A stretch of 36,859 nt of DNA from the IMG/VR virus record IMGVR_UViG_2541047855_000003; one strand, 5' to 3'. The stretch comes from a virus. Lineage: Duplodnaviria > Heunggongvirae > Uroviricota > Caudoviricetes. The translations under genes were made by a program, and so were the position numbers. Of this stretch, positions 1,991-36,859 are shown in pieces; within the stretch, counting starts at the first letter, position 1; the number at the start of each line of letters is the position of its first letter. The notes beneath the pieces were generated by a model, which was given only the letters and a program-made list of their open reading frames with translations, did not search any database and was not told the DNA's origin.

Positions 1991-2024
1991 CACAAACAAC
2001 CACAGATAGCGCAGGTTATCACAC

Positions 2025-2303: not shown

Positions 2304-2317
2304 CGAGGTGTCATTTT

Positions 2318-2656: not shown

Positions 2657-2666
2657 CAGGTGCGTT

Positions 2667-2945: not shown

Positions 2946-2956
2946 AGGGCGTTTCG

Positions 2957-3309: not shown

Positions 3310-3396
3310 CAGCGCAAATAAAAACCCTAGGTTAAATAAGAAAATGTAAAAACAATCCGCATTCGCGGAGGTATTCGCACACGCCCAGGAGGCGTA

Positions 3397-3815: not shown

Positions 3816-3923
3816 ACCTCAAGCCAGCAATAACTACTCGTAGAACGCCAATTTCTGTAACCGACCGCTTCTGAGTTTTTTGGCAGGAAGCCTTCGCACA
3901 TCCTTAGTAGAGAGAATTGCAGC

Positions 3924-4313
3924 ATGATTGACGCTCATGACTTCACAAGATGGGTGCGCACACAGGACACCCGTCTGGCTCCCGTTCTCCAAGGATTATT
4001 GGATCTTTACATCCGTGGTCGTGACAACAGAGCACGCACTACAAAACCGGAGAATGTGGATACCCTTTATTTCACAGTAGACGACTGCTACCGCGTGGAC
4101 TTCACACCACACGGACTGGCGTTGCACTGCCTGACACCGCACGGCGAATCACTGCTGGCGTATTACGACTCCCCGGCCTCCGTATTTGCGGCAATGCTGG
4201 CGCATCGCACTGCTGGCGGGTGTGCCTCGCTGAGTGAATACACCGCTGAATTTAACCGCCTTTCCACCATCTTCTTGCAGGAGTGGCAGCGCGTGACGGG
4301 ATACCAGCCATGA
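3924..4313 (+). CDS. Hypothetical protein (129 aa) immediately upstream of and coupled to gene A
   Basis: Stop TGA 4311-4313 overlaps the A start ATG 4310-4312. Confidence 0.55.
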   Translation: MIDAHDFTRWVRTQDTRLAPVLQGLLDLYIRGRDNRARTTKPENVDTLYFTVDDCYRVDFTPHGLALHCLTPHGESLLAYYDSPASVFAAMLAHRTAGGCASLSEYTAEFNRLSTIFLQEWQRVTGYQP

Positions 4314-7093: not shown

Positions 7094-7193
7094 CCAAGAA
7101 AGAAATCATCAATTGTATGAAGGTAGAGTTTAGACATGGTAAGGACGTTCCATGAGGCACACTGTAATTTCATATAGTATTCCTCTTCCCTGT

Positions 7194-7227
7194 TTGATAA
7201 AAAAGTGCAATACTATAAATAGTCCAG
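7194..7227 (+). promoter_or_regulatory. Candidate sigma70 promoter for cargo island 1
   Basis: TTGATA, about 16-nt spacer, TAAATA, in the AT-rich gap between gene A and the ATPase gene. Confidence 0.3.
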
Positions 7228-7273
7228 TTAAATGCTTTTTCAATTCACTTAAAATCAAGAGGTTACAATTAAG

Positions 7274-8395
7274 ATGGGCGACTTAGGTGGTATTCAGTCA
7301 GATTTAGCCCAACTAGTTAGACTGGTAATAGCTGAACAGTATGATGACGTTCGGTTATATGTCGCTCGCTTGGTGCGTAAATATCGGGAAACTATGCCTG
7401 CTCTATCCGAGCAGCTTGATCTTTATCTACGAAATAAACCGCAAAAGCCTGCACAAAGTCTGCGTAAGGTTACCGCACCAAAACAAGCGCTGCCTCAAAC
7501 CATGCCTGTGGACGAGGAGTCAAGGCTTACCTTGCTTAAAGCACCAAATGAAAAGATTGTGAGCAAACCTCTACTGTCCAGTCAGATAGAAGACTCACTG
7601 GATCAAATTATTCTTGAGCGGAAGCACATCGATCGCCTCAAGGCTCTCGGCTTACAACCAACACGCTCTGCCATTTTTGTTGGCCCTCCGGGTGTAGGTA
7701 AAACACTTACGGCAAGCTGGTTAGCTCAGAAATTAGGGGTTCCTTTTTACGTTCTTGATTTAACGGCAGTAATGAGCAGCTATCTGGGCAAAAGCGGAAA
7801 TAACCTTCGGGCAGCTCTAGATTTTGCGAAGAAAGGGCCGTGCGTTCTTCTGTTAGATGAAATTGATTCAATCGCCAAAAAGAGAAGTGATGATTCTGAT
7901 GTTGGAGAATTAAAAAGACTTGTTACCGTGATACTCCAGGAGGTTGACGAATGGCCGTCTTCTAGTTTGCTACTTGCTGCAACTAACTTCGCTGAGTTGA
8001 TTGATCCAGCACTATGGAGACGTTTTGATTTAGTGCTCAATTTTGAGAAGCCAGATAGTGAAAGTATTAAAGAAGCAATTAAACGCTTTTCAGGTCCCGA
8101 CTACGCGATTTTTGCACGTTGGATAGATCTACTGGCTATTATGTTCAAAAATGAATCTTTTAGTAATATTGAGCGTTCTATCAACAAATTCCGACGTTCG
8201 GTCGCTTTAGGTATTTCCTCAGATGAAGAGTTGATTGGGTCGTTCATTAAAGATGGTTTATCAGAATTAGACAGGAATGAACGTAAAGAAATTGCAGTTA
8301 CTCTAAAAAGAAATTCTAAATTATCCCAGCATGCCATATCAGACTTAACCGGAGTCAGTAGGGATACAATTAGAAAATACAGTCAAAAAATGTAA
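7274..8395 (+). CDS. ietA: Classic AAA+ ATPase with C-terminal HTH-like tail (IetA-like defence ATPase candidate)
   Basis: Walker A GPPGVGKT (K143, about nt 7700), Walker B LLLDEID, sensor-1 LLLAATN, arginine-finger region PALWRRFD; C-terminus LSQHAISDLTGVSRDTIRKY resembles an HTH. Symbol is from remembered architecture, not a search. Confidence 0.8.
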   Translation: MGDLGGIQSDLAQLVRLVIAEQYDDVRLYVARLVRKYRETMPALSEQLDLYLRNKPQKPAQSLRKVTAPKQALPQTMPVDEESRLTLLKAPNEKIVSKPLLSSQIEDSLDQIILERKHIDRLKALGLQPTRSAIFVGPPGVGKTLTASWLAQKLGVPFYVLDLTAVMSSYLGKSGNNLRAALDFAKKGPCVLLLDEIDSIAKKRSDDSDVGELKRLVTVILQEVDEWPSSSLLLAATNFAELIDPALWRRFDLVLNFEKPDSESIKEAIKRFSGPDYAIFARWIDLLAIMFKNESFSNIERSINKFRRSVALGISSDEELIGSFIKDGLSELDRNERKEIAVTLKRNSKLSQHAISDLTGVSRDTIRKYSQKM

Positions 8396-8418
8396 TACAG
8401 CATAGATAAGGAGTATGT

Positions 8419-10644
8419 ATGGCGAAAACTAATTTTCTGATTGGACGCGGCGAATTATTAACCAGCGATATTCCTGGTCCTAAAAGAGTGCCCGGAAAAG
8501 CTGAGGTTTATTCTCTTTACGAATCGAAACAACGTTTATTGCCGCAAATTGCATCTACTATAGAAAATTTTGATGATTTACCCAGTCAGGCATGTCCTTA
8601 TGATTATGCTGTGGCTAAGTTGACGTTGAATCCGAGCTATATTGCACGCTCTTTTTTTCCTGCAAAAATGCTTAAGTCTACCGGGTTAACGTCTATTGGC
8701 AGCAGGACGGTAAAAATTACGCCTCAAAGCTGGAAGCGAAAAGTTACTGTGTCAGAAGTAACTACGACACAAATGTTTGTTGCTGGTAAAAGAGAATCCT
8801 TCAAAGAGTTACCTCATTGGGTGTCAGGACTCAAAGAGTTTTCTGACGAAGCGATTGATTTTGCACGCATAGAACGGTTCGATGCCTATTTACCCGAAGA
8901 GCGTATTATTACCATTGGTGAGCAGGATTCTTCGTATTTTGAGGTTGGTGTTCATTTACTGCCAGATAATGAACAAGACTTGGTTCAGCAACAATTTGTT
9001 CAGTTTGCATCAAATTTGAACATCAAAGTACATACTTCATTAGCTTTTACCGCTGGTACATTATGGTTCGTGCCAATCCAGGCCGATAGAATTACTATTA
9101 GTAAGCTTGCGAAATTTACATTTGTACGAGTAATAAGACCGGTTCCAAGATTGCGTGGGATTAGACCAATACAAAGGAACTACGGTCCTTTAGCTCAGTG
9201 TAAGTTGCCTGCTGAGGGCCCCGTATCTTCAGAAATAAAAGTTGCGATTCTTGATGGTGGTTTACCATCAGAGCACACTATATCGCCATGGTTAAAATCC
9301 TATAGAGTTTTGGACGATCATGCAGAGGATGATCCAGACGGTTTAGAGCATGGTTTAGCTGTGTCTTCAGCCTTTTTATTTGGACCAATAAGTAATAAAT
9401 CGGAAGCGAAAAGACCATACTCTTATATTGATAACTTAAGAGTTTTGGACAACAAGACCTGCCAAGAAGATCCGCTGGAACTATATCGAACTTTGGGCTT
9501 TATTGAAGAGGTATTGTTGTCTCGCCAGTATCAGTTTATCAATCTAAGTTTAGGTCCAGACCTACCAATTGAAGATACGGAAGTTCATGCATGGACTTCC
9601 GTTATTGATGATTTGTTAAGTGATGGTGAAACATTAATGACTGTTGCTGTTGGCAACAATGGAGAAATGGATCGCAAGTCTGGTAATGCAAGAATTCAAG
9701 TACCAGCCGATTGCGTTAATGCTCTTGCTGTTGGTGCTTGTGATACAGTTAATGATACGGAATGGAAACGAGCACCATATAGCGCCATTGGGCCAGGCAG
9801 AAGTCCTGGCGTGATGAAACCGGATTTAGTTGCGTTTGGTGGTGACACAGACGAGTACTTTCATGTTTTAGGTAAAGGTAAGAAGCCTGTAATCATACCC
9901 CAGCTAGGAACAAGCTTTGCCTCTCCTTACGCCTTACGAGCAGCTGTTGGTGTTCGGGCAGTTTTAGGGAACGATTTGAGCCTACTAGCAATCAAAGCTT
10001 TGTTAATTCATGCGTCAAAACAGCTTGATCATCCTTGTACAGAAGTTGGCTGGGGAAAACTGCCTGAAGACTTGAACGACATTATAGTCAGCCCTGATGG
10101 TATTGCCCGTATCGTCTACCAAGGTGAATTGAAACCAGGAAAATACTTACGCGCTTCTCTTCCAATACCTGAAGGTGGCTTGAAAGGTAGAATAAACTTA
10201 GCGGCAACTTTCTGTTATGCAACAACCACTGATCCACAAGACCCAGCTTCCTATACAAAAGCTGGTTTGGAAGTGACATTCCGGCCAAATGATTCAAAAA
10301 TCAAAGACGGAAAACAAAATGCTGAAACCAAGGGATTCTTTGAACTGGCCAAATATTCAACTGAAAGTGAGCGACGTTCTGACATGGGCAAATGGGAGAC
10401 CGTCTTACATAATTCGAAGAACATGCTAGGTTCAACTCTAAAAAATCCTGTATTTGACATTCATTATAACGCTCGTGAGGCCGGTGCAAGCATAGCCAGC
10501 CATAAGGCAGAAAAAATCAAGTATGCTCTTATAATTACCATTAAGGCATCAAAGCACCAAGACCTGTATAACGAAATTTTACGTACTTATAATCAGGTGC
10601 TCGTGCCAATTCAACCGCAAACATCAATTCCTATTCGTTCGTAA
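8419..10644 (+). CDS. ietS: Cytoplasmic subtilisin-like S8 serine peptidase with large N- and C-terminal extra domains (IetS-like candidate)
   Basis: S8 triad in canonical order: D279 (VAILDGG, nt about 9253), H311 (EHGLAVSS, about 9349), S499 (GTSFASP, about 9913), oxyanion Asn in VGNNGE; no N-terminal signal peptide; AAGGAG RBS 5 nt upstream. Confidence 0.85.
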   Translation: MAKTNFLIGRGELLTSDIPGPKRVPGKAEVYSLYESKQRLLPQIASTIENFDDLPSQACPYDYAVAKLTLNPSYIARSFFPAKMLKSTGLTSIGSRTVKITPQSWKRKVTVSEVTTTQMFVAGKRESFKELPHWVSGLKEFSDEAIDFARIERFDAYLPEERIITIGEQDSSYFEVGVHLLPDNEQDLVQQQFVQFASNLNIKVHTSLAFTAGTLWFVPIQADRITISKLAKFTFVRVIRPVPRLRGIRPIQRNYGPLAQCKLPAEGPVSSEIKVAILDGGLPSEHTISPWLKSYRVLDDHAEDDPDGLEHGLAVSSAFLFGPISNKSEAKRPYSYIDNLRVLDNKTCQEDPLELYRTLGFIEEVLLSRQYQFINLSLGPDLPIEDTEVHAWTSVIDDLLSDGETLMTVAVGNNGEMDRKSGNARIQVPADCVNALAVGACDTVNDTEWKRAPYSAIGPGRSPGVMKPDLVAFGGDTDEYFHVLGKGKKPVIIPQLGTSFASPYALRAAVGVRAVLGNDLSLLAIKALLIHASKQLDHPCTEVGWGKLPEDLNDIIVSPDGIARIVYQGELKPGKYLRASLPIPEGGLKGRINLAATFCYATTTDPQDPASYTKAGLEVTFRPNDSKIKDGKQNAETKGFFELAKYSTESERRSDMGKWETVLHNSKNMLGSTLKNPVFDIHYNAREAGASIASHKAEKIKYALIITIKASKHQDLYNEILRTYNQVLVPIQPQTSIPIRS

Positions 10645-10660
10645 TCCTTCAAGACATAAT

Positions 10661-10688
10661 GCCCCTCAATTTGAGGGGCATTTCTTTG
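10661..10688 (+). terminator. Rho-independent terminator after the subtilase gene
   Basis: Stem GCCCCTCAA / TTGAGGGGC followed by ATTTCTTT. Confidence 0.65.
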
Positions 10689-10713
10689 CACAAAAGTGCA
10701 CAAATTTGCACAA
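10687..10713. repeat. Three helically phased TGCACAA direct repeats (10-bp period)
   Basis: TGCACAA at 10687-10693, 10697-10703 and 10707-10713. Confidence 0.6.
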
Positions 10714-10739
10714 TTTTTTTGAACAACTTTTTACCCTTC

Positions 10740-11137
10740 CGGCCCGCATGGCGGCTGGATCCGTCAAGGATCCGTGCGTGCACAAAAAAACGCGTTTTTT
10801 CTGCGCGCAGGTGACGGGGGAACAGCCCGCGTTTCAGGGGGTAAATAGCATCCCCTGAACGATGTCGCAGCGACACAACAGAATGGCTGTATTTCTCACG
10901 CTGAGCGTGAAAAAGGCGTGAGGGCTTTTGATTTGATGGGGTGGCAGATAAGGCCGTCAAAATCGCACTGAAGCGGCGAGAACATACAGTCAACGCGGTG
11001 GGATTGCGTAAGAGTCTGACCGTCGATGGTGGCGATAAACTGGAAGGCGTCGTGAAATTATCTGATTGATACAGGAGCTGGAGAGTCGGGGCATAAATTT
11101 TTTATGCCCCGGCGAAGCAGCAGACAAGCGAAGCGCG
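10740..11137. other. Structured non-coding region between cargo island 1 and portal gene; putative packaging (cos) region
   Basis: GGATCCGT twice (10757-10764, 10768-10775), palindrome AAAAAAACGCGTTTTTT (10784-10800), G-rich segment GGTGACGGGGGAACAGCCC (10810-10828) loosely resembling the remembered P2 cos ends, palindrome GGGGCAT...ATGCCCC (11083-11105). Exact cos not assignable. Confidence 0.3.
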
Positions 11138-25383: not shown

Positions 25384-25878
25384 TCAGAACAGCCCTTTAA
25401 CTGAACTGGCCGCGTTGTTAATGGATGCTGTCACCTTATCTTTGAAGCCGGACAGCATATCGCTGAACGATGAGGATTGCAGGCGCTCCCGCAAATCCTC
25501 ATCACAGCGTTCAAGGGTCAGTGAAAATTCTATCTTTTTCGCCTTACCGTAGCGATCAAACTCGGAACTGGTCGTATTCGTTCCGGTCAGGACATACATG
25601 CCGTAAATCTGCCCGACGCCATCAATAAGAGGCCAGGGGCGTCCTGTATACGCCTGCGTGGTCAGCAGCGACAGCGACACTTCGCCACCTGTAATTTCAG
25701 GATAAAGCACACCAGAAAGAACAATACGATCATCGCCTGCCCCGATATACTGCCAGCTTGCTGAACGGTTAACGCGTTCATTTTTCACATGTCGCCAGCT
25801 TTTATTTTGCTGTAACTGCTGATGCGGCAATGTGCGCAGCTCAAAAACAAACATGCCGTAGATCATCATCATGGCCAT
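25384..25878 (-). CDS. U: Tail protein U (gpU-like)
   Basis: Motifs SWRH, LSGVLYPEITGG, WPLIDGVGQIYGMY resemble gpU. Confidence 0.85.
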   Translation of the reverse strand: MAMMMIYGMFVFELRTLPHQQLQQNKSWRHVKNERVNRSASWQYIGAGDDRIVLSGVLYPEITGGEVSLSLLTTQAYTGRPWPLIDGVGQIYGMYVLTGTNTTSSEFDRYGKAKKIEFSLTLERCDEDLRERLQSSSFSDMLSGFKDKVTASINNAASSVKGLF

Positions 25879-25884
25879 GACTCC

Positions 25885-28701
25885 TCAATCTTTATCGTAA
25901 AAACTGCCACGCCCGGCACGGGCGCGCCGTTCCATTTCTGCCCTGACCATTTCACCGACCAGTTTCGCTAGTTCGCGGGGATTCTGTGTAACAACGTTAT
26001 GCAGATGAACATGAATTTCACCGCCAAATCCGGAGGCAACAGGTTCCCGGTTACGGGAAGTTGCAGGAACTGATGCCACTGGCGATCGTATGGCCTCCGC
26101 CACCGGGCGGGAGCTGGCCGCAACAACAGGGACCAGCGCCGGAGGCAGCGGAGCCGGAACCACGGGTGTGATATTAATTGCGGTGGCAGGCTTACTGACC
26201 TGCACAATCTTCCGCTCCTGCCACTCCCCACGAACAACAAGTGCGCGGGGCAGGTTCTTAAAGACAATATCGCCGGGGCCAATGCGTTTTTTCGTCTCAT
26301 CAACCAGCTTACCTGTGTTATCAGCAATTTTGCTGAGTCTGCGTAGCGTCCCGGTATTGCTGTCTGTGAGCGGTTTATTGTCTTTGGGTTTATCACCTCC
26401 GGTGCCATTGCCATTTTCCACAGGCTTCGGCGGATTGATTTTCGCCAGGTCCCCCTGAAGCAAGGCAACCTTGTCCTGAAGAATGGCCGCACGCTGTGCG
26501 TCTTCGATTTTCTTTCTCGCCCTTTCCGCTTCATCCGGAAGAACACCGAGTTTTTCAAGTATCCACGCCAGCGTATCCAGCAACATTTTTGCAGGCGTCA
26601 GAACAAGCTGTAACGCGCCACCAAGAACGTTACCGAATATCTCGCCAGCACTGGTACATTTATCCAGCGTTTCCTTGCTGGACTCCATCGGTGACAGCAG
26701 CGATTTGAACCAGTTAAACACCTGGCTGATCCCGCTTCCGATTGCGTCAAAAACAGGACCAAACTGTTCAAAGGTTTCGCGCAACGGGATCAGCCTTTCC
26801 ATAATCCCGCTGAACACCCCGGCAAAAAATGCCCTGATGGGATCCCAGTATTTCGAGATAAGAACGGCAGCTCCGGCAAGCGCAGCCACGATAAGACCAA
26901 CCGGACTGAATAGCGCCCCGATAGCACCTCCCAGCAAAGAAACGGAACCCGTCACCATTCCCCATAGTGCTGGCAGGACCCTGACAGCATTCATTGATCC
27001 GGTCAGGAGAGAAAAACCAAGACGCAGTTTTGCCAGCGGGCCAGCAAGCACACCAATAGCCAGCGACAACGAGCCAACCGTTGCAGTCATTGCCAGCAAC
27101 GCACCGCCTGCTATCAGTAGCTGGCGCGTCAGTACCGGATGGGCCTGCGCCAGCGCCGTCACCCTTGATACCACCCACGTGAGCCACTGCGTGACAGAAC
27201 GCAGCGGACCGTCAATCAGATCTGCAATGCGGATGCGCAACCCTTCCCATGCACTGCCGAGTGATTTCAGATCGCCGTCAAGGTTGTTGGCCATAACCTT
27301 TGCTGTGCGTTCAGCCTCACCGCGCGCGCCTTCAAGTTCTTTTCTCAGTTTGGGTAAGGAACCGTCACCCGCTGCATCAACGAGCGCCATAAACGATGTG
27401 AAAGCCTCTTCTCCGGCAATGTCCTTAAAGAACGATACCCGGTCAACTTCCCCGTATTTGCGGGTGGCTTTATAAAGGTCAGCCAGCACATCCTCCATCG
27501 GGCGCATTTTGCCGTTCGCGTCAGAGACTGCCACACCAAGCTCTTTCAGCGCCTCTGCTGCTGCCTTTGGCGGTGATGCCAGACGAGCCAGGCTGGCACG
27601 CATTGCCGTCCCGGCATCACTCCCTCTGATACCCATATTCGCCAGCACGCCCGCCATCGCTGCGGCCTGCTCCAGCGATATTCCCAGCTTACCCGCCACC
27701 GGACCTGCATATTTCATGGTTTCACCCAGTGCGCGAAGGTCAGTGTTGGTACGGGTAAACGCTGCGGTGAGTGTGTCACCGACCCGGTCCATCTGGTCAG
27801 CAGAAAGGCCGAACTGCGTCAGGATATTTGAGCCAATATCTGCCGTCTCGCCGAGATCCATACCGCCAGCCGTTGCCATGCTCAGCACGCTGGGAAGCGC
27901 AGCCTGAATGGCCTGCGGAGTGAAGCCAGCCATTGCAAGAAATGCCTGTCCACTGGCGGCATCGCCTGCGGTAAACTGCGTTTCAGAGCCAAGTTTTAAC
28001 GCCTGCTCACGCAGCGCCTTAAACTGCGGGCTGTTCTGGTCGATTCGCGTCAGTGCCTGAACGCGGGACATCTCTTTGCCGAACCCGATCGCAGGCTGCA
28101 AAAAACGCCCCGCAGCATAGCCGCCCGCCGCTGCCGCACCAATTGCCAGCGCACCACCTGTTTTCAGTTTTCCCGCAGTTTCCTGCGCGCGCGAATACCG
28201 CTCACGCGCCCGCGTTACACGCGCAAGTGCCTGCCGTTCGCGTTCAAGCTGGTTGTTGTACTGTTCGGTGCGTCTGATGGCCTGCTGGATGGTGTTATCG
28301 CTGCCTGTCAGGGAAATGCCGTGGCGTTTCAGCTCTCCGCCAAGCTCCCGCATTTTCTGAATTTCCCGTGTGCGCGATTCATTCAGGCGTTCAAGCCGGG
28401 TGCTTAACTGCTGCATCAGCTTTTGTTGCTTTTCGCTGAGCACTGTACCCGTGCGTTGTAACTGATTAAGGGCGTTAAGCTGGCGTCGTGCTTTCACGAT
28501 ACCCGCATCCGCTTTACTGACAGCGTCGCGGGCGCGCTCAAATGAACGCGCCTGACGCTCGAGATTTTTGATCGCCCCCTGCGTTCGCTGGATGGAGTCA
28601 CCAAACTGCCCCATCAGGCGGCGGGCGTTTTCGGCAGGCCGGGTCAGCCTGTCAACGGCGCTGAAAGCGACCCGGATATCAAGAGTCTTCATTGTCTGCA
28701 T
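25885..28701 (-). CDS. T: Tail tape measure protein (gpT-like)
   Basis: About 940 aa, coiled-coil N-terminal half, Gly/Ala-rich hydrophobic C-terminal half; start ambiguous (28701, 28692 or 28728). Confidence 0.85.
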   Translation of the reverse strand: MQTMKTLDIRVAFSAVDRLTRPAENARRLMGQFGDSIQRTQGAIKNLERQARSFERARDAVSKADAGIVKARRQLNALNQLQRTGTVLSEKQQKLMQQLSTRLERLNESRTREIQKMRELGGELKRHGISLTGSDNTIQQAIRRTEQYNNQLERERQALARVTRARERYSRAQETAGKLKTGGALAIGAAAAGGYAAGRFLQPAIGFGKEMSRVQALTRIDQNSPQFKALREQALKLGSETQFTAGDAASGQAFLAMAGFTPQAIQAALPSVLSMATAGGMDLGETADIGSNILTQFGLSADQMDRVGDTLTAAFTRTNTDLRALGETMKYAGPVAGKLGISLEQAAAMAGVLANMGIRGSDAGTAMRASLARLASPPKAAAEALKELGVAVSDANGKMRPMEDVLADLYKATRKYGEVDRVSFFKDIAGEEAFTSFMALVDAAGDGSLPKLRKELEGARGEAERTAKVMANNLDGDLKSLGSAWEGLRIRIADLIDGPLRSVTQWLTWVVSRVTALAQAHPVLTRQLLIAGGALLAMTATVGSLSLAIGVLAGPLAKLRLGFSLLTGSMNAVRVLPALWGMVTGSVSLLGGAIGALFSPVGLIVAALAGAAVLISKYWDPIRAFFAGVFSGIMERLIPLRETFEQFGPVFDAIGSGISQVFNWFKSLLSPMESSKETLDKCTSAGEIFGNVLGGALQLVLTPAKMLLDTLAWILEKLGVLPDEAERARKKIEDAQRAAILQDKVALLQGDLAKINPPKPVENGNGTGGDKPKDNKPLTDSNTGTLRRLSKIADNTGKLVDETKKRIGPGDIVFKNLPRALVVRGEWQERKIVQVSKPATAINITPVVPAPLPPALVPVVAASSRPVAEAIRSPVASVPATSRNREPVASGFGGEIHVHLHNVVTQNPRELAKLVGEMVRAEMERRARAGRGSFYDKD

Positions 28702-29208
28702 TCCCGCTGCGAAGTGCCGCCCGCTCACGCCAGCTAACCACTTCGCCGGGCGTCATCATGAAGATTTCGGCGGGCGACCAGTTAAAAATAACGGCAATAT
28801 CTGCCACAAAGTCTTCTATGTGCTCAAAGCACACAACCGTGATCAGGCTTCCGTCGCCTGTTCGTTCTTCCCGCCAGAGTCCGCACCGCTCAAAAAATTT
28901 ACGGCAACCACACATAACTGAATAAAGTCACGGGATGCCATTTTTTTGATCGTCACTTCATCCAGTCGCGGTGATGTCACGCGTGACAGCAGCGTAAACA
29001 TGGATTCCGCTTTCAGATTCAGCACATCAGACAGCGACAAATCTCGCAGAGATCCAGCCTGCTCAATAGCTCCGGTGATCTCCACATACGTGATTTTTTC
29101 GCCGCCTCGCTCAATTGGTTGGGTAAGTTTTACGCCACGCTCACTGGTTTCTTTCACAGTGTCAGCAACGACCGTGTTTTCGGTATCGATGTTTTTCGTC
29201 TCTTTCAT
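28679..29208 (-). CDS. E+E' fusion produced by programmed -1 ribosomal frameshift
   Basis: Slippery T TTT TTG on the minus strand (+ coordinates 28891-28897); the -1 frame continues ...FFERCGLWREERTG... to a stop at 28679, overlapping the start of T. Confidence 0.65.
28843..29208 (-). CDS. E: Tail assembly chaperone E (gpE-like)
   Basis: 121 aa; AAGGAG RBS upstream of ATG 29208; carries the slippery heptamer near its 3' end. Confidence 0.8.
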   Translation of the reverse strand: MKETKNIDTENTVVADTVKETSERGVKLTQPIERGGEKITYVEITGAIEQAGSLRDLSLSDVLNLKAESMFTLLSRVTSPRLDEVTIKKMASRDFIQLCVVAVNFLSGADSGGKNEQATEA

Positions 29209-29262
29209 CAGGAAACTCCTTTCAGTCAGAGGCGACGCACTGCGCCGCCTGCATATTACTTA

Positions 29263-29775
29263 TCAGCCAAGCCCGAGCGCAGAACGGATGCGATCGGGCA
29301 CAATGTCCTTGCCGTCCTTCCGGTAAATGAAGTTCAGCAGGTCAATCTCCCACAACGGGCGATCGTTAACACTCAGCTTGTAGTAGGTGTTTTTAATGGC
29401 GTAAGTGTGTGATGTGGCTTCGCCCTGTTTGGCTTCCCCCATATCAATTTCCGTCACACGTCCGCGCATTTCGACTTCATACAGGTCGCTTTCTGCATCG
29501 GTGTAATATTCACCCGCAAAACGCAGCAGCGTGCCGTCAATCGTGCCGCCATACTTAAGGAACAGCTCACGAACTGCGCCCCCCATGACAAAGCTCGCAT
29601 CAAGCGCGGAGTCGTCCAGACCGAGATCAATACTTACCGCACCCATCATGCCACCACCCCGGTAGCTGTCGGTTTTGCGCGTCAGCTTAGGCAGAGTGAC
29701 GGACGTCACCTTACCCACTTCGTTTTCACCATCCACAAACAGCGTAAAAAAGCGAAGATGTTTTGGCACAGCCAT
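29263..29775 (-). CDS. FII: Tail tube protein (gpFII-like)
   Basis: Motifs TLPKLTRK, YRGGGMMG, DLGLDDSALD resemble gpFII. Confidence 0.9.
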   Translation of the reverse strand: MAVPKHLRFFTLFVDGENEVGKVTSVTLPKLTRKTDSYRGGGMMGAVSIDLGLDDSALDASFVMGGAVRELFLKYGGTIDGTLLRFAGEYYTDAESDLYEVEMRGRVTEIDMGEAKQGEATSHTYAIKNTYYKLSVNDRPLWEIDLLNFIYRKDGKDIVPDRIRSALGLG

Positions 29776-30959
29776 CAGGCACCTCCCAGCACCGCAAATG
29801 CGGGTTCAAAGTATTCATCAGTAAACGTCTGGTAAAGCTCCATGTCTTCCAGTGGCGGAACGGGCGTATATTTGTAGCGAATACGCACACGTCCCTGACG
29901 TAAATCCGTGGTGCTGTTATCCACCACGTCATACCAGCACTCCGCGCCAATCAGTTTCCCGGCAGTAACCAGTGAATCCAGTTTTGCCCTGATGGCACTG
30001 ATAACATCCTTCACGTTCGCAGGCGTCAGTGGACTGTCGATGGTTTCAAACTGCGCTTCCGCAATTGAATCAGCCAGCACCTGTGCGGTTCGGGTATACA
30101 CCTCAAAGATGTAGGCGTTCGTTTCCGGTGTGCGGTTGCCCCAGAAGCGGAACCCGTTGCGACGAATAATGGTCGTGATTTCTTTGTTGTTAAGGCTGTT
30201 GGCATCACTGTCTTCGGCCTGCAACGACCAGAAAACATGCCTCGACATCCCCAGCACATTTTTAACCGGAACGTTGGACAGCGATTTGTGCCATCCCTGC
30301 TCATGGTCAATGTACGCACGAAGGCCGCACGCATAGGCAGGCGCGGGGAACGTTTCGTTTTTGCCACTTTTCGGGTTGTAGGCGATGAAGTCCGGCCATA
30401 AGAGCATCACCTCACGTTCGTTGAATTTCTGGCGGTAGGTAATCGCCGCAGCCATCGTGTTACAGCCGTGACATGAGGCATACACAAACGCGCGCAGTTT
30501 ACCTGCAATCACGCACAGGGATTTTGTTACAGCCTCCGTGTCCAGCTCCGGCGCGGCCAGAATACGCGGACGGTATCCGATGCTTTCATCCTGCTCTGCA
30601 ACAAGCAGCGCATACATCCCCGTATAGCTGCCGTCATCCTCAGAACCACCGATAACCAGTTGATCCTGCGTCTTTCCGTCTTCTTCTTTGTGTTCAGCCA
30701 CGCGAACGACGATCACCTTTGTGCTCACCTGGTCTGCGATGGCCTTAAGCGCACGATAAAGCGTCCCCGTTGTCCCGCATTTTCCCAGCACGTCATTGAC
30801 GCGGGTCAGCAGTGTGGGCTTGTTCAGCGGGAACAGCTTCGCGTCCGCATCATCCGCCGTTGCCACGATACCGATAACGCTGGAATCAACATCGTTAATC
30901 GCTGTTACCAGGTCGGTATTTTCCGTAACACGGGCACCATGAAAACGAGTTTCACTCAT
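29775..30959 (-). CDS. FI: Contractile tail sheath protein (gpFI-like)
   Basis: 394 aa; FPLNKPTLLT and LKAIADQ motifs resemble gpFI. Confidence 0.9.
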   Translation of the reverse strand: MSETRFHGARVTENTDLVTAINDVDSSVIGIVATADDADAKLFPLNKPTLLTRVNDVLGKCGTTGTLYRALKAIADQVSTKVIVVRVAEHKEEDGKTQDQLVIGGSEDDGSYTGMYALLVAEQDESIGYRPRILAAPELDTEAVTKSLCVIAGKLRAFVYASCHGCNTMAAAITYRQKFNEREVMLLWPDFIAYNPKSGKNETFPAPAYACGLRAYIDHEQGWHKSLSNVPVKNVLGMSRHVFWSLQAEDSDANSLNNKEITTIIRRNGFRFWGNRTPETNAYIFEVYTRTAQVLADSIAEAQFETIDSPLTPANVKDVISAIRAKLDSLVTAGKLIGAECWYDVVDNSTTDLRQGRVRIRYKYTPVPPLEDMELYQTFTDEYFEPAFAVLGGA

Positions 30960-31116
30960 AGCTTCAGCCCCTTGTATCCGTTAAATGATTCGGCAACAAT
31001 CATCACCCACCACGCGCGTAATCTCACCCCTGCGCCGTTCTCCCGCCACGGCGACAACAAAAAGCAGTAACCCCCTACGCACGCACATGCGACCATGCCG
31101 CACAGGGAGGGAACAG

Positions 31117-32226
31117 ATGACCGATACCACCATGCAATTGCTCAGTCAGAGCACAGACCCCGTGAAAATGCCGGATTTTGATATTCTCGCGGAGGGGGAA
31201 ACACTGTCCGGCGTGGCAGAGCGCCTGATGAGCCTGTCACTGACCGACAACCGGGGATTTGAAGCGGACCAGCTCACCATCACGCTGGATGATGCGGATG
31301 GTCAGTTGCAGCTACCGCCACGGGGCGTGCGCCTGACGGTTCTCATTGGCTGGAAAGGAGAACCGCTGACAGAAAAAGGCACTTACATTGTTGATGAAAT
31401 CGCTCACGAAGGACCGCCGGACAGGCTGACGGTTTCAGCCAGAAGCGCAGATTTTCGGGATGAATTTAACGTTAAACGTGAGGTGTCCTGGCATGATGTG
31501 ACCGTTGAGCGCGTGGTATCCGCCATCGCTCATCGGTATGGTCTGAAACCGCAAATCAGCGAAATGCTGATGGATATAGAAATCGACCACGCCGACCAGA
31601 CCGAAGAAAGCGACATGTCCTTTCTTACGCGCATGGCGGAAATGCTGGGCGCAATCACCACAGTAAAAAGCGGTAATCTGTTATTCATCATGCCCGGTGG
31701 TGGCGTGAACGCACAGGGCCAGCCGTTGCCATCGTTCGCCATCACACGCAGCAGCGGCGATCGCCATCAGTTCCGCATTGCTGACCGCGAGGCGTATACG
31801 GGTGTACGCGCCTACTGGCTTGATCTTAATTACGGGAAAAAGAAAAAAGTCAGCGTGAAACGCCGCAAACCGCAAAAACCCAAAAAGGAGAAAAGCAGCA
31901 GCCGTGAAGGTGATTATATGGAAGGCGCGGAAGGCAACGTGTTTGTGTTACGCAAGACTTATCAGAACGAGCAGGCAGCAAGACGCGCAGCGGCGGCAAA
32001 GTGGCAGCAGCTACAACGCGGAGCCGCAGCGTTCTCCATCACACTGGCACGTGGACGCGCAGAACTCTACCCCGAAATGCATGGCACGGTAACAGGATTT
32101 AAAAGCGAAATTGATAATCAGGACTGGATTATTGCAAAAGCCGAGCACACCATTGATAACAGCGGCTTTACCACGCAGCTTGAACTTGAGGCAAAAATCC
32201 CGGAATGGATAGCAGAAACAGCTTGA
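31117..32226 (+). CDS. D: Tail protein D (late control gene D-like)
   Basis: ATG 31117 with GGGAGG RBS; about 370 aa with lysine-rich internal stretch; position before ogr. Confidence 0.8.
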   Translation: MTDTTMQLLSQSTDPVKMPDFDILAEGETLSGVAERLMSLSLTDNRGFEADQLTITLDDADGQLQLPPRGVRLTVLIGWKGEPLTEKGTYIVDEIAHEGPPDRLTVSARSADFRDEFNVKREVSWHDVTVERVVSAIAHRYGLKPQISEMLMDIEIDHADQTEESDMSFLTRMAEMLGAITTVKSGNLLFIMPGGGVNAQGQPLPSFAITRSSGDRHQFRIADREAYTGVRAYWLDLNYGKKKKVSVKRRKPQKPKKEKSSSREGDYMEGAEGNVFVLRKTYQNEQAARRAAAAKWQQLQRGAAAFSITLARGRAELYPEMHGTVTGFKSEIDNQDWIIAKAEHTIDNSGFTTQLELEAKIPEWIAETA

Positions 32227-32271
32227 TCAGCTAAGATGTATTGCACGCCTACCCCCTTCAGTTTTCTGACT

Positions 32272-32296
32272 GTCCGCTCTGTGCCAAGAGCGGACA
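32272..32296. terminator. Hairpin between convergent D (+) and herA-like (-) genes
   Basis: Stem GTCCGCTC (32272-32279) / GAGCGGAC (32289-32296), A/T-rich flank. Confidence 0.45.
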
Positions 32297-32394
32297 TATA
32301 TAATTTCGTACTGTATCAATCGAAAGGAATCAGCTCCTTCCTATCTCAAATATGAGACACTGCTTATAGCACCACTGGAAATTGGTTAAACATC

Positions 32395-34428
32395 TCAACT
32401 TTGCCAATCATCAGCTATCTGTTGCCAATTAACTTTCCGAGGTTCTTTTGTAGTGCTAGACCACACATCCCAAAAATCAGGATCATCAGATTGCGGTCGT
32501 TGTTTTTCAGTAAGCTCTTTCATTCTAACTAAAACAGGAAGTTCTGAAGCCCATCCAAGTAAAATAGCATGCCTAGATGGTAACGATGGCAGCTCTCTCA
32601 ACAGCCCTCTCATATTATCTGGAACAAGTCTATGTACTTGCTCTTGATCTCTATCATTACTAATCCTGTGCAACAAAAAAGTATTACATTGAGATAAAAC
32701 CGTCGGAGATAGCTCTGATGGCCTTTGGGAAGAAACAACAAGGCCTAGCCCAAACTTTCTTCCTTCCCGTGCAATCTTTTCAAACACCTTGCAACATATA
32801 TCAGAGACTGACTGAGTTTCACTATCTTCCTTGTAACGTTTAATAAACGTATGCGCTTCTTCTGCAACTAAAACTGTTGGTAGCGGCCTTCCATTTAATC
32901 TTCGATAACGTTGTAGTGCTTCAAAAGCCACCCTAGAAATTACAGCTGTTACCAAATGAATTATTTCATTTGGTACTAGAGATAAATCTATAACAGTTAT
33001 AGATCCTTGTTCATTTTTACCGAGAAAAGTGTCTAACCAATTAGTTAAACTTATAGGCTTTACAGAATCATTGGTTACTGCACTAATACGAGTGTCACCT
33101 AGCATTGTTCGAATACGAGTCAAAAGAAACTCAACGAATTGTTCTGTACCTGTTTCTTGAGCCAGAGCTTCGAGATATGCGACAAAATCATCGCCTTTAA
33201 AACGCATAGGCGCATCTTCGCTTTTTGGAAGAAGTTCTTGTTCATCTCCCCCTAGAGCTGTATATGCATCTCTGAATCCATTAATCAACAACTCAATCTC
33301 GGAAACAACAGGCTTTGCTGGCCAAGAAGATCCACTTCGTGAAGAAAGATACGTATTTATTGTGTTTATTAGCTTATCGAGCGATTTATCAACAATTCTC
33401 TCGTTTAAGATAGAAATACTATCTCTCCAAGAACCCAAAGTTTCAACCAAACCTTTAGCAGATCCACTATTCACATATATCTGACCTTGACTTGCCTGCT
33501 GTCTCATAGATACAAGAAGGATACCGCAAAAGCGTTTGGCTTGAATTTTCACATCATCTTCTGATAGAAGATTATTCCTCATTGCCCTCAAAGCACGACG
33601 TAGTAAAGGAAGTTGCACCTTTGAACTTGCTTGAGTGAAAGCAGCCCACTCAGAACTATTCCATAACCATGAAGGTACTTTAAGATCCATCTCTCCGACA
33701 TCGATGTTAGCCTCTACACGTAATAGTTTACCCTTATATCTTGATTCTGGCCCTAAAGCTCTACTATATTCTCCGTTCGGATCAAGTATTATAAATCGAG
33801 CATTTGGAGATTTTCCCTGTTGTAAAACAGCATCAAGAGACCATTGAATTAAGCCGGCCACCGAACATGATTTACCACTACCCGTATTACCTAAAACAGC
33901 TATATGTCGTCCGAAAAGTCTATCGGGGTCTACTTTTATTTCAGCATTGTTAGCTAGGGGGCTATCCCCTATTTTTACCCTTCTATTATCACCTGATTCA
34001 ATTATTGATTGTAATTGTCGGTCAGTAGGCAAAAGCACAGAGTCACCAACCGAAGGGAAAGCATCAGTTCCTCTCGTGAACCTGAAACCTTCGTTTTTTC
34101 TATCAACTCTCAATGTACCAACTGGATTGATACTAAGCTTTTTAAGTGGGAAAGGAAGGTCTATCAACCCAAAATCTTGTAAGCCTCTTCTTTTGGGATA
34201 TGGCGAGTTTTCTATTGCAATCCACTCAACTTGCCCAACAAGAAACCCGTCATCACTACGGATTAAAATATAACTATTTATTCTAGGAAAATTACGAGGC
34301 GCCCCACCTTGAAGTGATACTGAATCAGGAGAATCAATCTCTAAAGACACCCTAATTTCATTAGGTGATACAAACTCAACAGTTCCAATTCTTAGTTGTT
34401 CTATTTTTTCTATTGGTAAATAACTCAT
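32395..34428 (-). CDS. herA: HerA-like P-loop ATPase (SIR2-HerA defence pair, ATPase component)
   Basis: Walker A GNTGSGKS (about nt 33868-33891), Walker B VLVAEEAH, SQRP motif; N-terminal beta-rich region; start at M3 (34428, GAGGT 6 nt upstream) or 34434; overlaps the upstream gene stop by 4 nt. Confidence 0.8.
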   Translation of the reverse strand: MSYLPIEKIEQLRIGTVEFVSPNEIRVSLEIDSPDSVSLQGGAPRNFPRINSYILIRSDDGFLVGQVEWIAIENSPYPKRRGLQDFGLIDLPFPLKKLSINPVGTLRVDRKNEGFRFTRGTDAFPSVGDSVLLPTDRQLQSIIESGDNRRVKIGDSPLANNAEIKVDPDRLFGRHIAVLGNTGSGKSCSVAGLIQWSLDAVLQQGKSPNARFIILDPNGEYSRALGPESRYKGKLLRVEANIDVGEMDLKVPSWLWNSSEWAAFTQASSKVQLPLLRRALRAMRNNLLSEDDVKIQAKRFCGILLVSMRQQASQGQIYVNSGSAKGLVETLGSWRDSISILNERIVDKSLDKLINTINTYLSSRSGSSWPAKPVVSEIELLINGFRDAYTALGGDEQELLPKSEDAPMRFKGDDFVAYLEALAQETGTEQFVEFLLTRIRTMLGDTRISAVTNDSVKPISLTNWLDTFLGKNEQGSITVIDLSLVPNEIIHLVTAVISRVAFEALQRYRRLNGRPLPTVLVAEEAHTFIKRYKEDSETQSVSDICCKVFEKIAREGRKFGLGLVVSSQRPSELSPTVLSQCNTFLLHRISNDRDQEQVHRLVPDNMRGLLRELPSLPSRHAILLGWASELPVLVRMKELTEKQRPQSDDPDFWDVWSSTTKEPRKVNWQQIADDWQS

Positions 34429-34430
34429 TG

Positions 34431-35843
34431 TCATACCTCAACTTCGGCTGAATTACCTAACTCTTTGAACTGCATAAAGCCTCTTTGTTTGAGCAACTCT
34501 GCCATCTTGATTGATGCTTTATCAATAGCTGGTTTAGGTAAATAGTTATCAACTAAAGTTTTGAAGTCTCCTAAATGATCTCCCATCAAAAGGGTAATCT
34601 GTGCTTTTCTTCCACTATTACTAATGAAACGCATAATTCTGCCAAGTGGATCGCCAAAGGCTATTATTACTATATGAGTGGAAGGTACCGTAAGCATGTC
34701 TTCAATTACTCTATTGATATGCTCATCACCAAAGCTATAACCATAAGTGACTAATGTGCTATTTGGACGGCTAGTTGCTGCTGCCAGATCTCGAAATAGC
34801 TCAACATAAGGATACTCGGCTGTTTCTCTGTCTTTTACTGAATTAGGGTAAATCATCAGTTTTTCATAGCCATTGCTTTGATGACCTTCGGCTTCCAAAA
34901 ACGGCTCAACAGAACGTGCTCCAAAGGGTAAGCCAAAGCGCCTAATCGCATTATTTTGTTCATGCCAATCAAGGGAACCATGAAGTTTAGTAAAACGTGC
35001 CACGCCCTCCAAGTATCTTGGTTCACCACGGATTCCAGGAGGATTATAATGATAATCAACTTCTAATCTTGAGGATCGAAATACTGGAGCAATACTTCCT
35101 ACAAAGCGATCAATAAGTCTTAAACCAGCAAGCTCAGCACCCACTTCAATAATACGGTCATAATTTGTTGTAAAGATATGTAGCCTATCGCGAGTGGCAG
35201 TTCTACTTGCAAAGCTCATCAAAAAACTAACTAGATAGTTGAAAGTTTCCTCTTTCCGGGCTGGTTCAGCAGTTTTGATTAAATATTCTCCTTTAATTAT
35301 AGATTTAGAAAACTCCCCCAAGCATCTAGAAAGCTCGCCTTTGAGCTCGCCCAAGTCTGCTTTTAAGTTTCTATAAGCAGAATAAGGAGGTGGCGGATTT
35401 TCTGGTTGAGGAGTATTTAACACCGTTAAAATTTCGAGACCTTTAATAAGTTCATTGATAGTTCTAATTTGATCTTCTATATTTCCTCTATCGCGACCTG
35501 CAGCTTTTGCAGCCTGAGTGGAAAATTCATCTATTTCGCTTTTACATACTTTTAAATCATTAATCCACCCCATCCCTACTGGAGATAAACCTGTAGCTGA
35601 TTTTTGAATAGCCGAGCTTAAGCCTGCACCGATTAATAAATTTAAATGCTCTGATTGGAAGAGAGCTGTTAGCCAGGGCTCAATATTTTGGCGCAATTTC
35701 TCAATTGATATTTCTGCCCCCTGTTCTCCCCATACACAGTTCTTCGAGAGGATAAAAGGATGAGAATCAGCATGCTCGCCAGAATTAGATGATAGATCAA
35801 TAATTTCTGATATACTGCCAACTTTTATATGTTGAATACTCAT
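34431..35843 (-). CDS. sir2: SIR2-family (sirtuin-like NADase fold) protein, partner of HerA
   Basis: SIR2-type motifs in order: LLIGAGLS, TTNYD, KLHGSLDW; likely start at 35843 (MSIQHIK); AT-rich codon usage. Confidence 0.8.
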   Translation of the reverse strand: MSIQHIKVGSISEIIDLSSNSGEHADSHPFILSKNCVWGEQGAEISIEKLRQNIEPWLTALFQSEHLNLLIGAGLSSAIQKSATGLSPVGMGWINDLKVCKSEIDEFSTQAAKAAGRDRGNIEDQIRTINELIKGLEILTVLNTPQPENPPPPYSAYRNLKADLGELKGELSRCLGEFSKSIIKGEYLIKTAEPARKEETFNYLVSFLMSFASRTATRDRLHIFTTNYDRIIEVGAELAGLRLIDRFVGSIAPVFRSSRLEVDYHYNPPGIRGEPRYLEGVARFTKLHGSLDWHEQNNAIRRFGLPFGARSVEPFLEAEGHQSNGYEKLMIYPNSVKDRETAEYPYVELFRDLAAATSRPNSTLVTYGYSFGDEHINRVIEDMLTVPSTHIVIIAFGDPLGRIMRFISNSGRKAQITLLMGDHLGDFKTLVDNYLPKPAIDKASIKMAELLKQRGFMQFKELGNSAEVEV

Positions 35844-36267
35844 AAATGCACTTCTTTTATTTGTGTTAAAAAACATACTTTTGTAGAGGCAAACGAGTGC
35901 CAAGAGTATGAAACTTAGCGATTAAGTTCGAATCTTACACCTCCCAAAGCCTCTGAGAATTATCAACCTAACCCAAAGGAACTCAATCAGCGTTTTATTT
36001 TAGCACGACTAAATAACTAGTAGATAGCGTCAAAGACAAACCGGGGAGATAAAAACTTACAACACTGCCACCAGTAAAATCATCTACATACCAACAAGTT
36101 GCCTTCAATCACGTAGAATAATCCTACTAGTGCATAGTCAATCTCGACTACTTACTCAGTGAAAATTCAACTGCAAACTTCTGGTTTTTACTCAAAGCAA
36201 GCAGTTAGTTGGAATCAGTATTAGTACAACTTAGAATAATAGAAACACCACGTTAAGGGAGGTCGCT

Positions 36268-36528
36268 ATGTTCCGTTGTCCACTTTGTGGCGCGTCTGCC
36301 CGTATCCGCACCAGTCGTCCGGAAAATGACTCAAACACCGTGCGGCAAAAGTATTACCAGTGTAATAACCTGGAATGCGGCGTATGCTTCTCAACACTGG
36401 AAGCTTTTCATAAGTTCACATCAAAACACACCTCAGAAGTTCATTCTTCAGAAGACATACCGTGGCAGGCTCTGCCAGCTTCACACAGGGGGAACAATCA
36501 GATGAGTTTGCCCTTATCTCAGAATTAA
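36268..36528 (+). CDS. ogr: Ogr-like zinc-finger late-gene transcription activator
   Basis: MFRCPLCGASARIRTSR...YYQCNNLECGVCF matches the Ogr Cys4 pattern (CPLC...RTSR...QC...C); AGGGAGG RBS; 86 aa, longer than P2 Ogr. Confidence 0.85.
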   Translation: MFRCPLCGASARIRTSRPENDSNTVRQKYYQCNNLECGVCFSTLEAFHKFTSKHTSEVHSSEDIPWQALPASHRGNNQMSLPLSQN

Positions 36529-36588
36529 CGAGCAGAATTGCCGGAGTAACAAAAAAGCGATAGATTACGCGCGGGTGCCTTTCGGCTT

Positions 36589-36852
36589 ATGGTCGGAGGG
36601 AATACCCGAAGGCCAGATGTGGAAAGGCCCCGGAAAACATCTCTGTTTAACCGAGGCCCTAACCGCATTACCTTGACAAGTGAAAGGTTAGCGCCTCTCC
36701 TGAAAAGGAGCAAGTGCTATGTCGCAAAAATCGCTTACGGCCATCACGTTCTGCGTGACGGCAATCCTCATCATCTGGATGCTGCACGGTTCGCTGTGCG
36801 AAATACGGATGAGCTTCTGGGGAGCGGAGTTTGCGGCGTTCTTACAGTGTAA
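36589..36852 (+). CDS. mok: mok-like overlapping reading frame (modulator of killing) of the hok locus
   Basis: ORF starting upstream of hok and overlapping it in another frame, as in hok/sok loci; no independent sequence evidence. Confidence 0.4.
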   Translation: MVGGNTRRPDVERPRKTSLFNRGPNRITLTSERLAPLLKRSKCYVAKIAYGHHVLRDGNPHHLDAARFAVRNTDELLGSGVCGVLTV

Positions 36853-36859
36853 GCAGTAA
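36719..36859 (+). CDS. hok: Hok/Gef-family type I toxin (small membrane protein)
   Basis: 46 aa MSQKSLTAITFCVTAILIIWMLHGSLCEIRMSFWGAEFAAFLQCKQ: N-terminal TM helix plus the family motif SLCEIR and AAF; AAGGAG RBS; stop TAA is the last codon of the window. Confidence 0.8.
   Translation: MSQKSLTAITFCVTAILIIWMLHGSLCEIRMSFWGAEFAAFLQCKQ

Follow-up and report, generated by a model that had tools for sequence, protein, structure and literature searches.

A SIR2-HerA gene pair carried as cargo between genes D and ogr of a P88-like prophage, within a candidate transposable frame

The sir2-herA pair of the island

Between the tail gene D and the late-gene activator gene ogr of a P2-family prophage lies a pair of genes which, judged by its sequence, is an intact SIR2-HerA (Nezha) system maintained by selection. 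The prophage is the IMG/VR virus record IMGVR_UViG_2541047855_000003 (Caudoviricetes), 36,859 nucleotides (nt) in length; we call this whole stretch the window, and its positions are used throughout. The island (32227-36267) contains two long co-directional open reading frames (ORFs) on the minus strand, 32395-34434 (679 amino acids, aa) and 34431-35903 (490 aa when counted from a TTG). No credible small ORF was found in either of its flanks, and sir2 and herA are thus its sole genes. An earlier annotation, made from the letters alone (hereafter, the sequence-only reading), had described two minus-strand genes with a 4-nt ATGA overlap, and both the ORFs and the junction sequence (GAGGTATGACAATGAGT) bear it out: GAG GTA TGA is read together with ATG ACA ATG, so that the sir2 stop overlaps the herA ATG by 4 nt. 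The same 4-nt overlap is given by the Prokaryotic Genome Annotation Pipeline (PGAP) in two homologous copies, one in a tRNA-Phe island and the other in a conjugative element.

The composition of the island differs from that of its surroundings. Its guanine-plus-cytosine (GC) content is 39.0% (0.390), against 53.5% for gene D and 54.5% for the late region, and along 32500-36000 it stays at 0.38-0.41, against 0.53-0.60 in the adjoining late genes. The sample 33001-33060, previously hand-counted at about 32% GC, has 31.7%. As for the non-coding flanks, announced at about 170 and about 360 bp, the first figure stands (168 bp, 42.9% GC) and the second does not, since the right flank measures 424 bp (37% GC) once the start of sir2 is moved to its conserved ATG at 35843.

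This ATG, which gives a protein of 470 aa, is conserved in both diverged copies of the gene (85% and 80% identity). The TTG at 35903 was rejected as a start, the frame upstream of 35843 being broken in these two copies. In the 470-aa numbering, the three expected SIR2 motifs are all present, i.e., GAGLS at 72, TTNYD at 225, and KLHGS at 286. The protein matches the PADLOC SIR2 model PDLC04079 at 3e-155, compared with 1.1e-14 for the best PADLOC Aga_SIR2 match, and Pfam SIR2_2 at 33.7 bits for a cut-off of 24.5. A PDB search matched only SIR2 proteins, 8j4u_A (3.9e-21), 8yhx_G, and 8w9l_A, and two of these three entries also contain HerA chains that match the HerA of the window. TTNYD and K[LI]HGS are aligned to 8j4u_A and 8yhx_G, the alignment to the E. 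coli (Escherichia coli) protein EcSIR2 being restricted to residues 191-432 of the TTG-started ORF. Catalytic residues have been identified in PsSIR2 of Paenibacillus (N163/D165/H212; PMC11472057) and in SaSir2 of Staphylococcus aureus (N226/H287; PMC11514289). Their counterparts in the window are N227, D229, and H288, and the glycines of the NAD-binding GxG motif are present as G72 and G74. Across an alignment of 30 homologues (57-89% identity), N227, H288, G72, and G74 do not vary, and conservation of D229 is 90% or higher. This is a very common subtype, with over 7000 matching proteins in the database at E < 1e-10; identities of 58-89% are found with proteins from Gammaproteobacteria, Synergistota, Bipolaricaulota, and Bacillota.

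The downstream protein, which would have 677 aa if started from the second ATG (34428), carries the HerA/FtsK-type Walker A and B and SQRP motifs that the sequence-only reading had listed (GNTGSGKS at 182, VLVAEEAH at 521, SQRP at 569). It matches the PADLOC model PDLC04098 over residues 7-678 (3.1e-252) and Pfam DUF87, the HerA central domain, above cut-off (2.7e-23). Matches to HerA chains of the PDB range from 1e-48 to 1.5e-36, with all three motifs aligned. Profile annotation with PADLOC and Pfam thus recognizes both proteins, alignment to characterized pairs finds the catalytic Asn/Asp/His and Walker A/B retained, and the profile matches, catalytic motifs, gene order, and ATGA overlap all fit the SIR2-HerA architecture that had been proposed. 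We consider the pair to be intact and selected because its ratio of nonsynonymous to synonymous substitution rates (dN/dS) is low across mobile-element contexts: set against the window, the copies in other elements that are 85% and 80% identical at the DNA level give values of 0.06-0.10 (sir2) and 0.05-0.10 (herA).

The SIR2-HerA pair travels on unrelated mobile elements. A copy in a tRNA-Phe island is 84.4% identical across 32343-36014, a copy beside traN in a chromosomal conjugative element is 79.2% identical across 32392-35909, and Vibrio parahaemolyticus conjugative plasmid and Proteus records carry pairs about 80% identical to that of the window. The variable site adjoining traN holds this SIR2-HerA subtype, followed by an endonuclease I gene, in elements of both E. 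coli XH1815 (L003) and V. cholerae (L180).

D-ogr as a cargo site of the carrier lineage

The carrier is a P88-like (Xuanwuvirus) P2-family prophage of E. coli. It has a full P2-type gene set, and it is assigned to this group because its tail block FI-FII-E-E'-T-U, on the strand opposite to D, is arranged as in phage P88, genus Xuanwuvirus. In phage P2, ogr follows D after 81 bp, as the sequence-only reading had stated, and the annotated ogr promoter lies within this spacer. We compared 79 IMG/VR loci retrieved with the Ogr protein with a control of 80 loci retrieved with P2's own Ogr. In the control, the D-ogr spacer measures 80-82 bp in 80/80 loci and is never occupied (0/80). Among the 79 related loci, 42 are empty (40-42 bp spacer) and 37 are occupied, the inserts (1009-4041 bp) falling into at least 12 length classes. 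Hence, the cargo position described beforehand as non-canonical is so for P2 proper; in the P88-like lineage the site is regularly used as a hotspot, by 12 or more types of cargo. The comparison with relatives lacking the insert, which had been suggested as a check, also revealed a scar: the motif ACTTAGA is single in the 42 empty loci and duplicated when the site is occupied. Backbone-like composition and universal conservation, which would have spoken against an insertion, were not observed (GC 0.39 vs 0.54; 42/79 loci empty).

The pair itself is rare, being found in 20 of 5426 complete E. coli genomes. In 15 of the 5426, copies at least 99% identical lie between D and ogr, and in 13 of these 15 the annotation shows both SIR2 and HerA intact. 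The D and ogr flanks were found in 1508 E. coli genomes, 15 of which have the SIR2-HerA insert. The four copies whose flanks were inspected, together with the window's own match, all adjoin ihfA, in hosts with different pheT alleles. The island is cargo, as follows from its foreign GC content, from the empty sites in relatives, and from its rarity among genomes.

Other passengers of the site include a PifA-like KAP NTPase (1e-64), a GmrSD_N+HNH protein, and a PsyrT-like protein and, in E. coli genomes, DUF3800, YecA-like, PIN, and DUF2971 proteins as well as insertion sequences (IS). Several passengers have no Pfam or PADLOC match: three single proteins (221, 295, and 478 aa) and two pairs (930+106 aa and 186+134 aa). 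Of a further pair (185+178 aa), the 178-aa protein alone has a weak PsyrT match. These passengers without a clear match come from loci L017, L034, L050, L067, L074, and L079.

The sequences on either side of the cargo indicate how it was exchanged recently. Through ogr, locus pairs with the same cargo are 0.995-0.999 identical, against 0.95-0.98 for pairs with different cargo, and over the last 50 bp of D the values are 0.993 and 0.947. This gap spans about 250 bp of D, converging by 300 bp, and extends on the ogr side to about 420 bp after the ATG. As the flanks have spread together with the cargo, the recent spread is best explained by homologous recombination between related phages, flanks included, and not by exchange at short repeats. 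Site-specific exchange at the direct repeats, which we also considered as the recent route, is unsupported, since the linkage of the cargo extends over about 250 bp of D and the whole of ogr.

Positions 31100-36700 of the window are 100% identical to E. coli strain HSP60, where the prophage lies between btuC and ihfA. Positions ~1-11000 are offset by 132 bp from the HSP60 record (NZ_CM137001.1), and the window is not simply that record throughout. A first low-GC island (7274-10644, 0.416 GC), located between a replication gene and the portal gene, encodes IetA (PADLOC 9e-78) and IetS (4e-51). With IetAS at the replication-portal hotspot and SIR2-HerA at D-ogr, the prophage therefore carries two defense systems at two hotspots. 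The minus strand encodes the tail block U-T-E'-E-FII-FI (25384-30959), whose direction is opposite to that of H, G, and D. Between G and U there are just about 41 bp and a hairpin, so that no cargo occupies the position of P2 Z/fun. The reading frame of gene D is intact in the window and most likely extends over 31117-32226, matching a 369-aa coding sequence annotated by PGAP in strain C7; the gene is about 95% identical to that of relatives without the insert. Its RefSeq annotation (30985-32226) is inconsistent, with either a 266-aa protein and an overlapping pseudogene fragment or a protein of 366-369 aa. After ogr, at the prophage end, a hok/gef-family toxin gene (36719-36859) is cut by the end of the window; in a relative (L084 8306-8462), a sok-like antisense RNA scores 46.7 bits, below the Rfam threshold of 59. 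A megablast of the island against deposited phage genomes gave no match, and tblastn of HerA against phages gave just two distant partial ones. No Rfam match was found in the whole window, and no tRNA in 31000-36859.

An inverted element around the cargo

Empty and occupied sites differ in a precise manner. The empty site reads TGA-GCA-ACTTAGA-ATAGCG...ATG, with ACTTAGA invariant and single in 42/42, and the occupied site reads TGA-GCA-ACTTAGA-TGCATTAGCTCAGAC ... GTCTGAGCTAGTACA-ACTTAGA-ATAGC. Since ACTTAGA is single in the first and present twice in the second, a 7-bp target has been duplicated. About 100 bp after the left ACTTAGA and about 90 bp before the right one are conserved among cassettes with unrelated cargo, and these two blocks are inverted copies of a single ~90-nt element, which has a hairpin with an 8-bp stem at its cargo-proximal end and TGTA...TACA at the outer ends. 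A model built on this element matches most D-ogr cassettes at both ends, the left copies and two right copies at E 1e-11 to 1e-24. An Rfam scan of the loci with the element gave no family match above threshold. Two cassette types (L051, L034) show matching variant 7-bp repeats on both sides (CTTAAA; CATAGA). These variants are absent from all 42 empty sites sampled, and could reflect independent insertions into variant targets, or gene conversion.

In the window, the left copy of the element retains the outer TGTATTG and the inner hairpin (32271-32296, terminator-like, 10 pairs), with ~25-40 nt deleted, and the hairpin part alone scores with the model (E 1e-5). The right copy is below the model threshold and recognizable by alignment only, and the two 7-bp copies agree at 5 of 7 positions (GCTAAGA vs ACTTAGA). 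Table 1 collects the features.

Table 1. Features of the D-ogr region of the window
Feature	Position	Strand	Evidence or remark
Tail gene D, 369 aa	31117-32226	+	Pfam Phage_GPD 4.5e-17; left backbone flank
Left 7-bp target copy, degenerate GCTAAGA	32230-32236	.	Empty vs occupied junction comparison
Eroded left boundary element	32237-32300	-	Left-junction alignment; model R1 match 32265-32297, E 1e-5
Shared SIR2-HerA unit (both genes, ~50 bp downstream, ~170 bp upstream)	32343-36014	-	
herA, 679 aa	32395-34434	-	PADLOC, Pfam, PDB matches
sir2, 470 aa	34431-35843	-	PADLOC, Pfam, PDB matches
Operon promoter-like site TTGAGT-16-GATAAT	35959-35986	-	Consensus scan; 116 nt upstream of sir2 ATG
Eroded short-form right boundary element, weak hairpin then TTAGTTGGAATCAGTATTAGTACA	36178-36228	+	Right-junction alignment, 12 cassette types
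ogr promoter-like site TTGGAA-17-TAGAAT	36209-36237	+	Consensus scan
Right 7-bp target copy ACTTAGA	36229-36235	.	Empty vs occupied junction comparison
ogr, late-gene activator, 86 aa	36268-36528	+	Pfam Ogr_Delta 4.4e-14; right backbone flank

The right end of the cassette also touches the control of the late genes. Indeed, the right block provides TTGGAG or TTGGAA at 17 nt before TAGAAT, a sequence that every occupied site keeps, so that the -35 of the ogr promoter-like site is inside the cassette end and its -10 overlaps the duplicated target. This -10 lies about 33 nt before the ATG, matching the annotated ogr -10 of P2. The right cassette end thereby appears to rebuild a good candidate ogr promoter at the P2-equivalent position. 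On the other strand, TTGAGT-16-GATAAT (35986-35959) lies in an upstream block conserved in all three SIR2-HerA copies and is the putative promoter of the operon.

The same element occurs well beyond D-ogr. In phage P2 (L179), an inverted pair surrounds fun(Z), at 776-862 (-) and 2928-3015 (+), each copy with E ~1e-11, one directly after the G stop and the other just upstream of the pF activator site; P2-type contigs have the pair in the same place. In another E. coli element, an inverted pair surrounds a DUF4365 gene adjoining the integrase at yjjG. The loci with pairs include L177 (2041-2120 and 3996-4085), L187, L188, L190, and L193. Two more islands have single or partial copies, and in the tRNA-Phe island a fragment of the element hairpin precedes sir2 (L002 11810-11847, E 0.003). 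An exact-pattern scan of species-representative genomes gave 13 matches, nearly all in Enterobacterales, and in 7 of these 13 a pair of the element recognized by the model again faces inward on cargo of low GC. Four of these pairs are abutted by seven-base direct repeats, perfect or matching at 6/7 positions (CTTAATC, AATAATT, ATTTATT, CTTTATA/CTTTACA). The insertion sites are unrelated to one another: after gpU, and between gpV and gpS, in two P2-like prophages; beside Gabija-like genes; between a lacI-type gene and traM; and beside a histidine kinase gene. Passengers outside D-ogr include DUF2971, an ATPase and HNH pair, and a caspase-domain protein. Within the cassettes examined we found no transposase belonging to the cassette, and only secondary IS insertions.

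Inward-facing pairs with 7-bp repeats have the signature expected of a non-autonomous, passenger-carrying transposable cassette. We tentatively suggest, at somewhat less than even odds, that the D-ogr island belongs to a family of such cassettes, which would be moved in trans by a putative transposase and would deliver defense genes to phage hotspots (fun(Z) in P2, D-ogr in P88-like phages, the gpU and gpV-gpS sites of other P2-like prophages) and to chromosomal and plasmid sites across Enterobacterales. An integron attC-like reading of the cassette ends was set aside, as was a resemblance of the right end to the terminus of IS1 (shared AGTTGGAGTC and CAACTTA); both resemblances are unproven.

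Readings of the island and comparison with known systems

We propose, with a probability of roughly 0.85, that the island is lysogenic-conversion cargo, i.e., an intact, selectively maintained SIR2-HerA (Nezha-type) anti-phage operon on a P88-like P2-family prophage. In characterized relatives, NAD+ (nicotinamide adenine dinucleotide) depletion and phage protection require both HerA and the active site of SIR2 (PMC11472057, PMC11514289, PMC11212891), protection is seen in native hosts (PMC11212891), and in vitro the complexes display nuclease, ATPase, and helicase activities as well (PMC11472057). By analogy, a sigma-70 promoter of the operon itself would drive its transcription in the lysogen, in the orientation opposite to that of the late genes; herA would be translationally coupled to sir2, and the proteins would assemble as a SIR2 ring of 12-14 subunits on a HerA hexamer. 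Infection by another phage would then unleash the NADase of SIR2, possibly along with nuclease and ATPase activities. The ensuing depletion of NAD+ would abort the infection and protect the lysogen population, and thus the prophage.

As for the arrival of the operon, the D-ogr spacer of the lineage would be a cassette site bounded by the inverted ~90-nt elements and the 7-bp duplication, inside which the SIR2-HerA unit (32343-36014) may have replaced an earlier cargo, eroding both ends. We favor replacement in an existing frame, since the other SIR2-HerA copies cease to be homologous to the window 100-170 bp inside its end remnants. Related phages would subsequently have acquired the loaded site through homologous recombination, with crossovers in D and past ogr. 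Late-gene control would be preserved throughout, the right end of the cassette supplying the -35 of ogr.

Several points weigh against this proposal. Both boundary copies are eroded in the window, and the arrival route is reconstructed from other cassettes. Promoter consensus matches are no more frequent in the island than in shuffled sequence. The closest solved SIR2 relative is distant, its match of 3.9e-21 covering the C-terminal 240 residues only, and an AlphaFold2 model of the SIR2 monomer (30-sequence alignment) reached a predicted local distance difference test score (pLDDT) of 55.8, with the Rossmann core below 50, and was not used. We found no experiment on this SIR2-HerA subtype in the literature. 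An 86%-identical V. cholerae relative was considered as the Nezha system already tested and was rejected: it adjoins traN in a conjugative element, and the SIR2 of the tested classical-biotype V. cholerae Nezha has the N168/H227 numbering of the E. coli type. Finally, in two pig isolates (HCP5S3_I2, LCP30S3_I5; L095 5470-6738), the IS4-like ISVsa5 splits sir2 in two and leaves herA intact. This may represent the loss of a costly or toxic effector, and the system can thus be lost or carry a cost.

The alternative that survives best concerns the arrival. The pair could be the original passenger of a transposable cassette, inserted at D-ogr with its 7-bp duplication, no earlier cargo having been replaced. 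In its favor are the cassettes of several genera that have the same ends and, at unrelated sites, perfect 7-bp duplications; the empty D-ogr sites, which have the target once; and the element hairpin fragment upstream of sir2 in the tRNA-Phe island copy. The early end of homology to the other SIR2-HerA copies and the erosion of both ends in the window argue the other way, and no copy of the pair elsewhere, among the loci examined, is flanked by a full element pair. We regard an original passenger as unlikely.

Two further alternatives dispute the function. An operon intact in sequence could be a silent or non-functional hitch-hiking remnant without defense, as the weak promoter calls and the IS-disrupted copies might suggest. 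Against this, both frames are full length with dN/dS of 0.05-0.10, all catalytic and nucleotide-binding residues are retained, the upstream region is conserved across three element types, and 13 of 15 near-identical copies are annotated intact, which makes a silent operon very improbable. Slighter still is the chance that the pair serves the prophage otherwise, as an addiction module, a brake on its own lytic growth or on a P4 satellite, or in HerA-NurA-like end processing: the in vitro nuclease, ATPase, and helicase activities of SIR2-HerA complexes (PMC11472057) would suit such roles, but a NurA-type partner is lacking, defense-system models give the best profile matches, cassettes at the same D-ogr site carry known defense genes (PifA-like, GmrSD-like), and relatives are protective in their native hosts (PMC11212891).

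The identification of the pair as SIR2-HerA is routine; it adds a very widespread subtype (58-89% identity across several phyla) on a P2-family prophage that also has IetAS. The hotspot and its inverted-repeat frame are a more interesting lead than the pair itself. D-ogr is a well-used cargo site of P88-like phages: almost one locus in two of the sample is occupied, the cargo types number at least 12 and mostly have no known function, and the uncharacterized passengers, including the DUF3800, PIN, and YecA-like proteins, are candidate defense genes by position. Should the cassette reading be true, these passengers would form a ready list of candidate new defense genes. One inverted-repeat frame with target duplication ties together D-ogr, the fun(Z) locus of P2, and cargo sites in other genera, and its mobility, if real, would explain how defense genes reach exact positions in packed phage genomes and leave essential operons unbroken.

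The frame has known counterparts. Mobile insertion cassettes (e.g., the MICs of Bacillus cereus) are passenger-carrying, non-autonomous transposons. They have in common with the cassettes described here terminal inverted repeats, target duplication, passenger genes, and the lack of a transposase of their own; what sets the present cassettes apart is the length of their ends (about 90 nt), the TGTA...TACA termini, and the duplication of 7 bp. According to a review (PMC8987985, citing Nilsson et al. 2004), inverted repeats flank the fun(Z) cassette of P2. The same ~90-nt inverted pair brackets low-GC cargo there and at D-ogr; the position in the genome is another, and the copies of the window are eroded. 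The 7-bp duplications and the unrelated insertion sites point to transposition and not to a fixed site of recombination. For P2, the literature describes two hotspots, gpA-gpQ and Z/fun (PMC9122126, PMC9519451). The window shares with the defense cargo of P2/P4 hotspots, including a SIR2+HerA pair of a P4-satellite hotspot (PMC9122126, PMC9519451), the principle of exchangeable cargo at a fixed P2-family site, but its site is D-ogr and not gpA-gpQ, Z/fun, or psu-int.

As for the proteins, the pair can be set apart from Thoeris ThsA, DSR, SIR2-pAgo/SPARSA, and Avs5, in which SIR2 is joined to or works with SLOG/TIR, a DSR C-terminal sensor, pAgo-APAZ, or a STAND NTPase, the partner of SIR2 and its sole neighbor in the island being HerA, and likewise from the HerA-NurA end-resection pair, since no NurA gene adjoins herA, whose only neighbor is sir2. 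The best sequence matches of the window HerA (1e-48 to 5e-43) are to HerA subunits of other complexes (PDB 9c1m, 8xau, 8ziq), none of whose chains matched the SIR2 query, whereas the partner in the window is SIR2. With EcSIR2-HerA (8j4u, 8su9), PsSIR2-HerA, SaSir2-HerA (8w9l, 8wiv), and the Nezha of classical-biotype V. cholerae, the window shares the overlapping sir2-then-herA order, and with the SIR2-HerA (Nezha) family the N/D/H active site, Walker A/B, and full-length matches to the PADLOC SIR2 and HerA models. It differs from the solved representatives in being a sequence-divergent subtype, with a SIR2 of 470 aa against 381-428 aa and a HerA of 679 aa, and in being prophage-borne. The system of the window is hence an additional member of the already known SIR2-HerA family, carried as prophage cargo.

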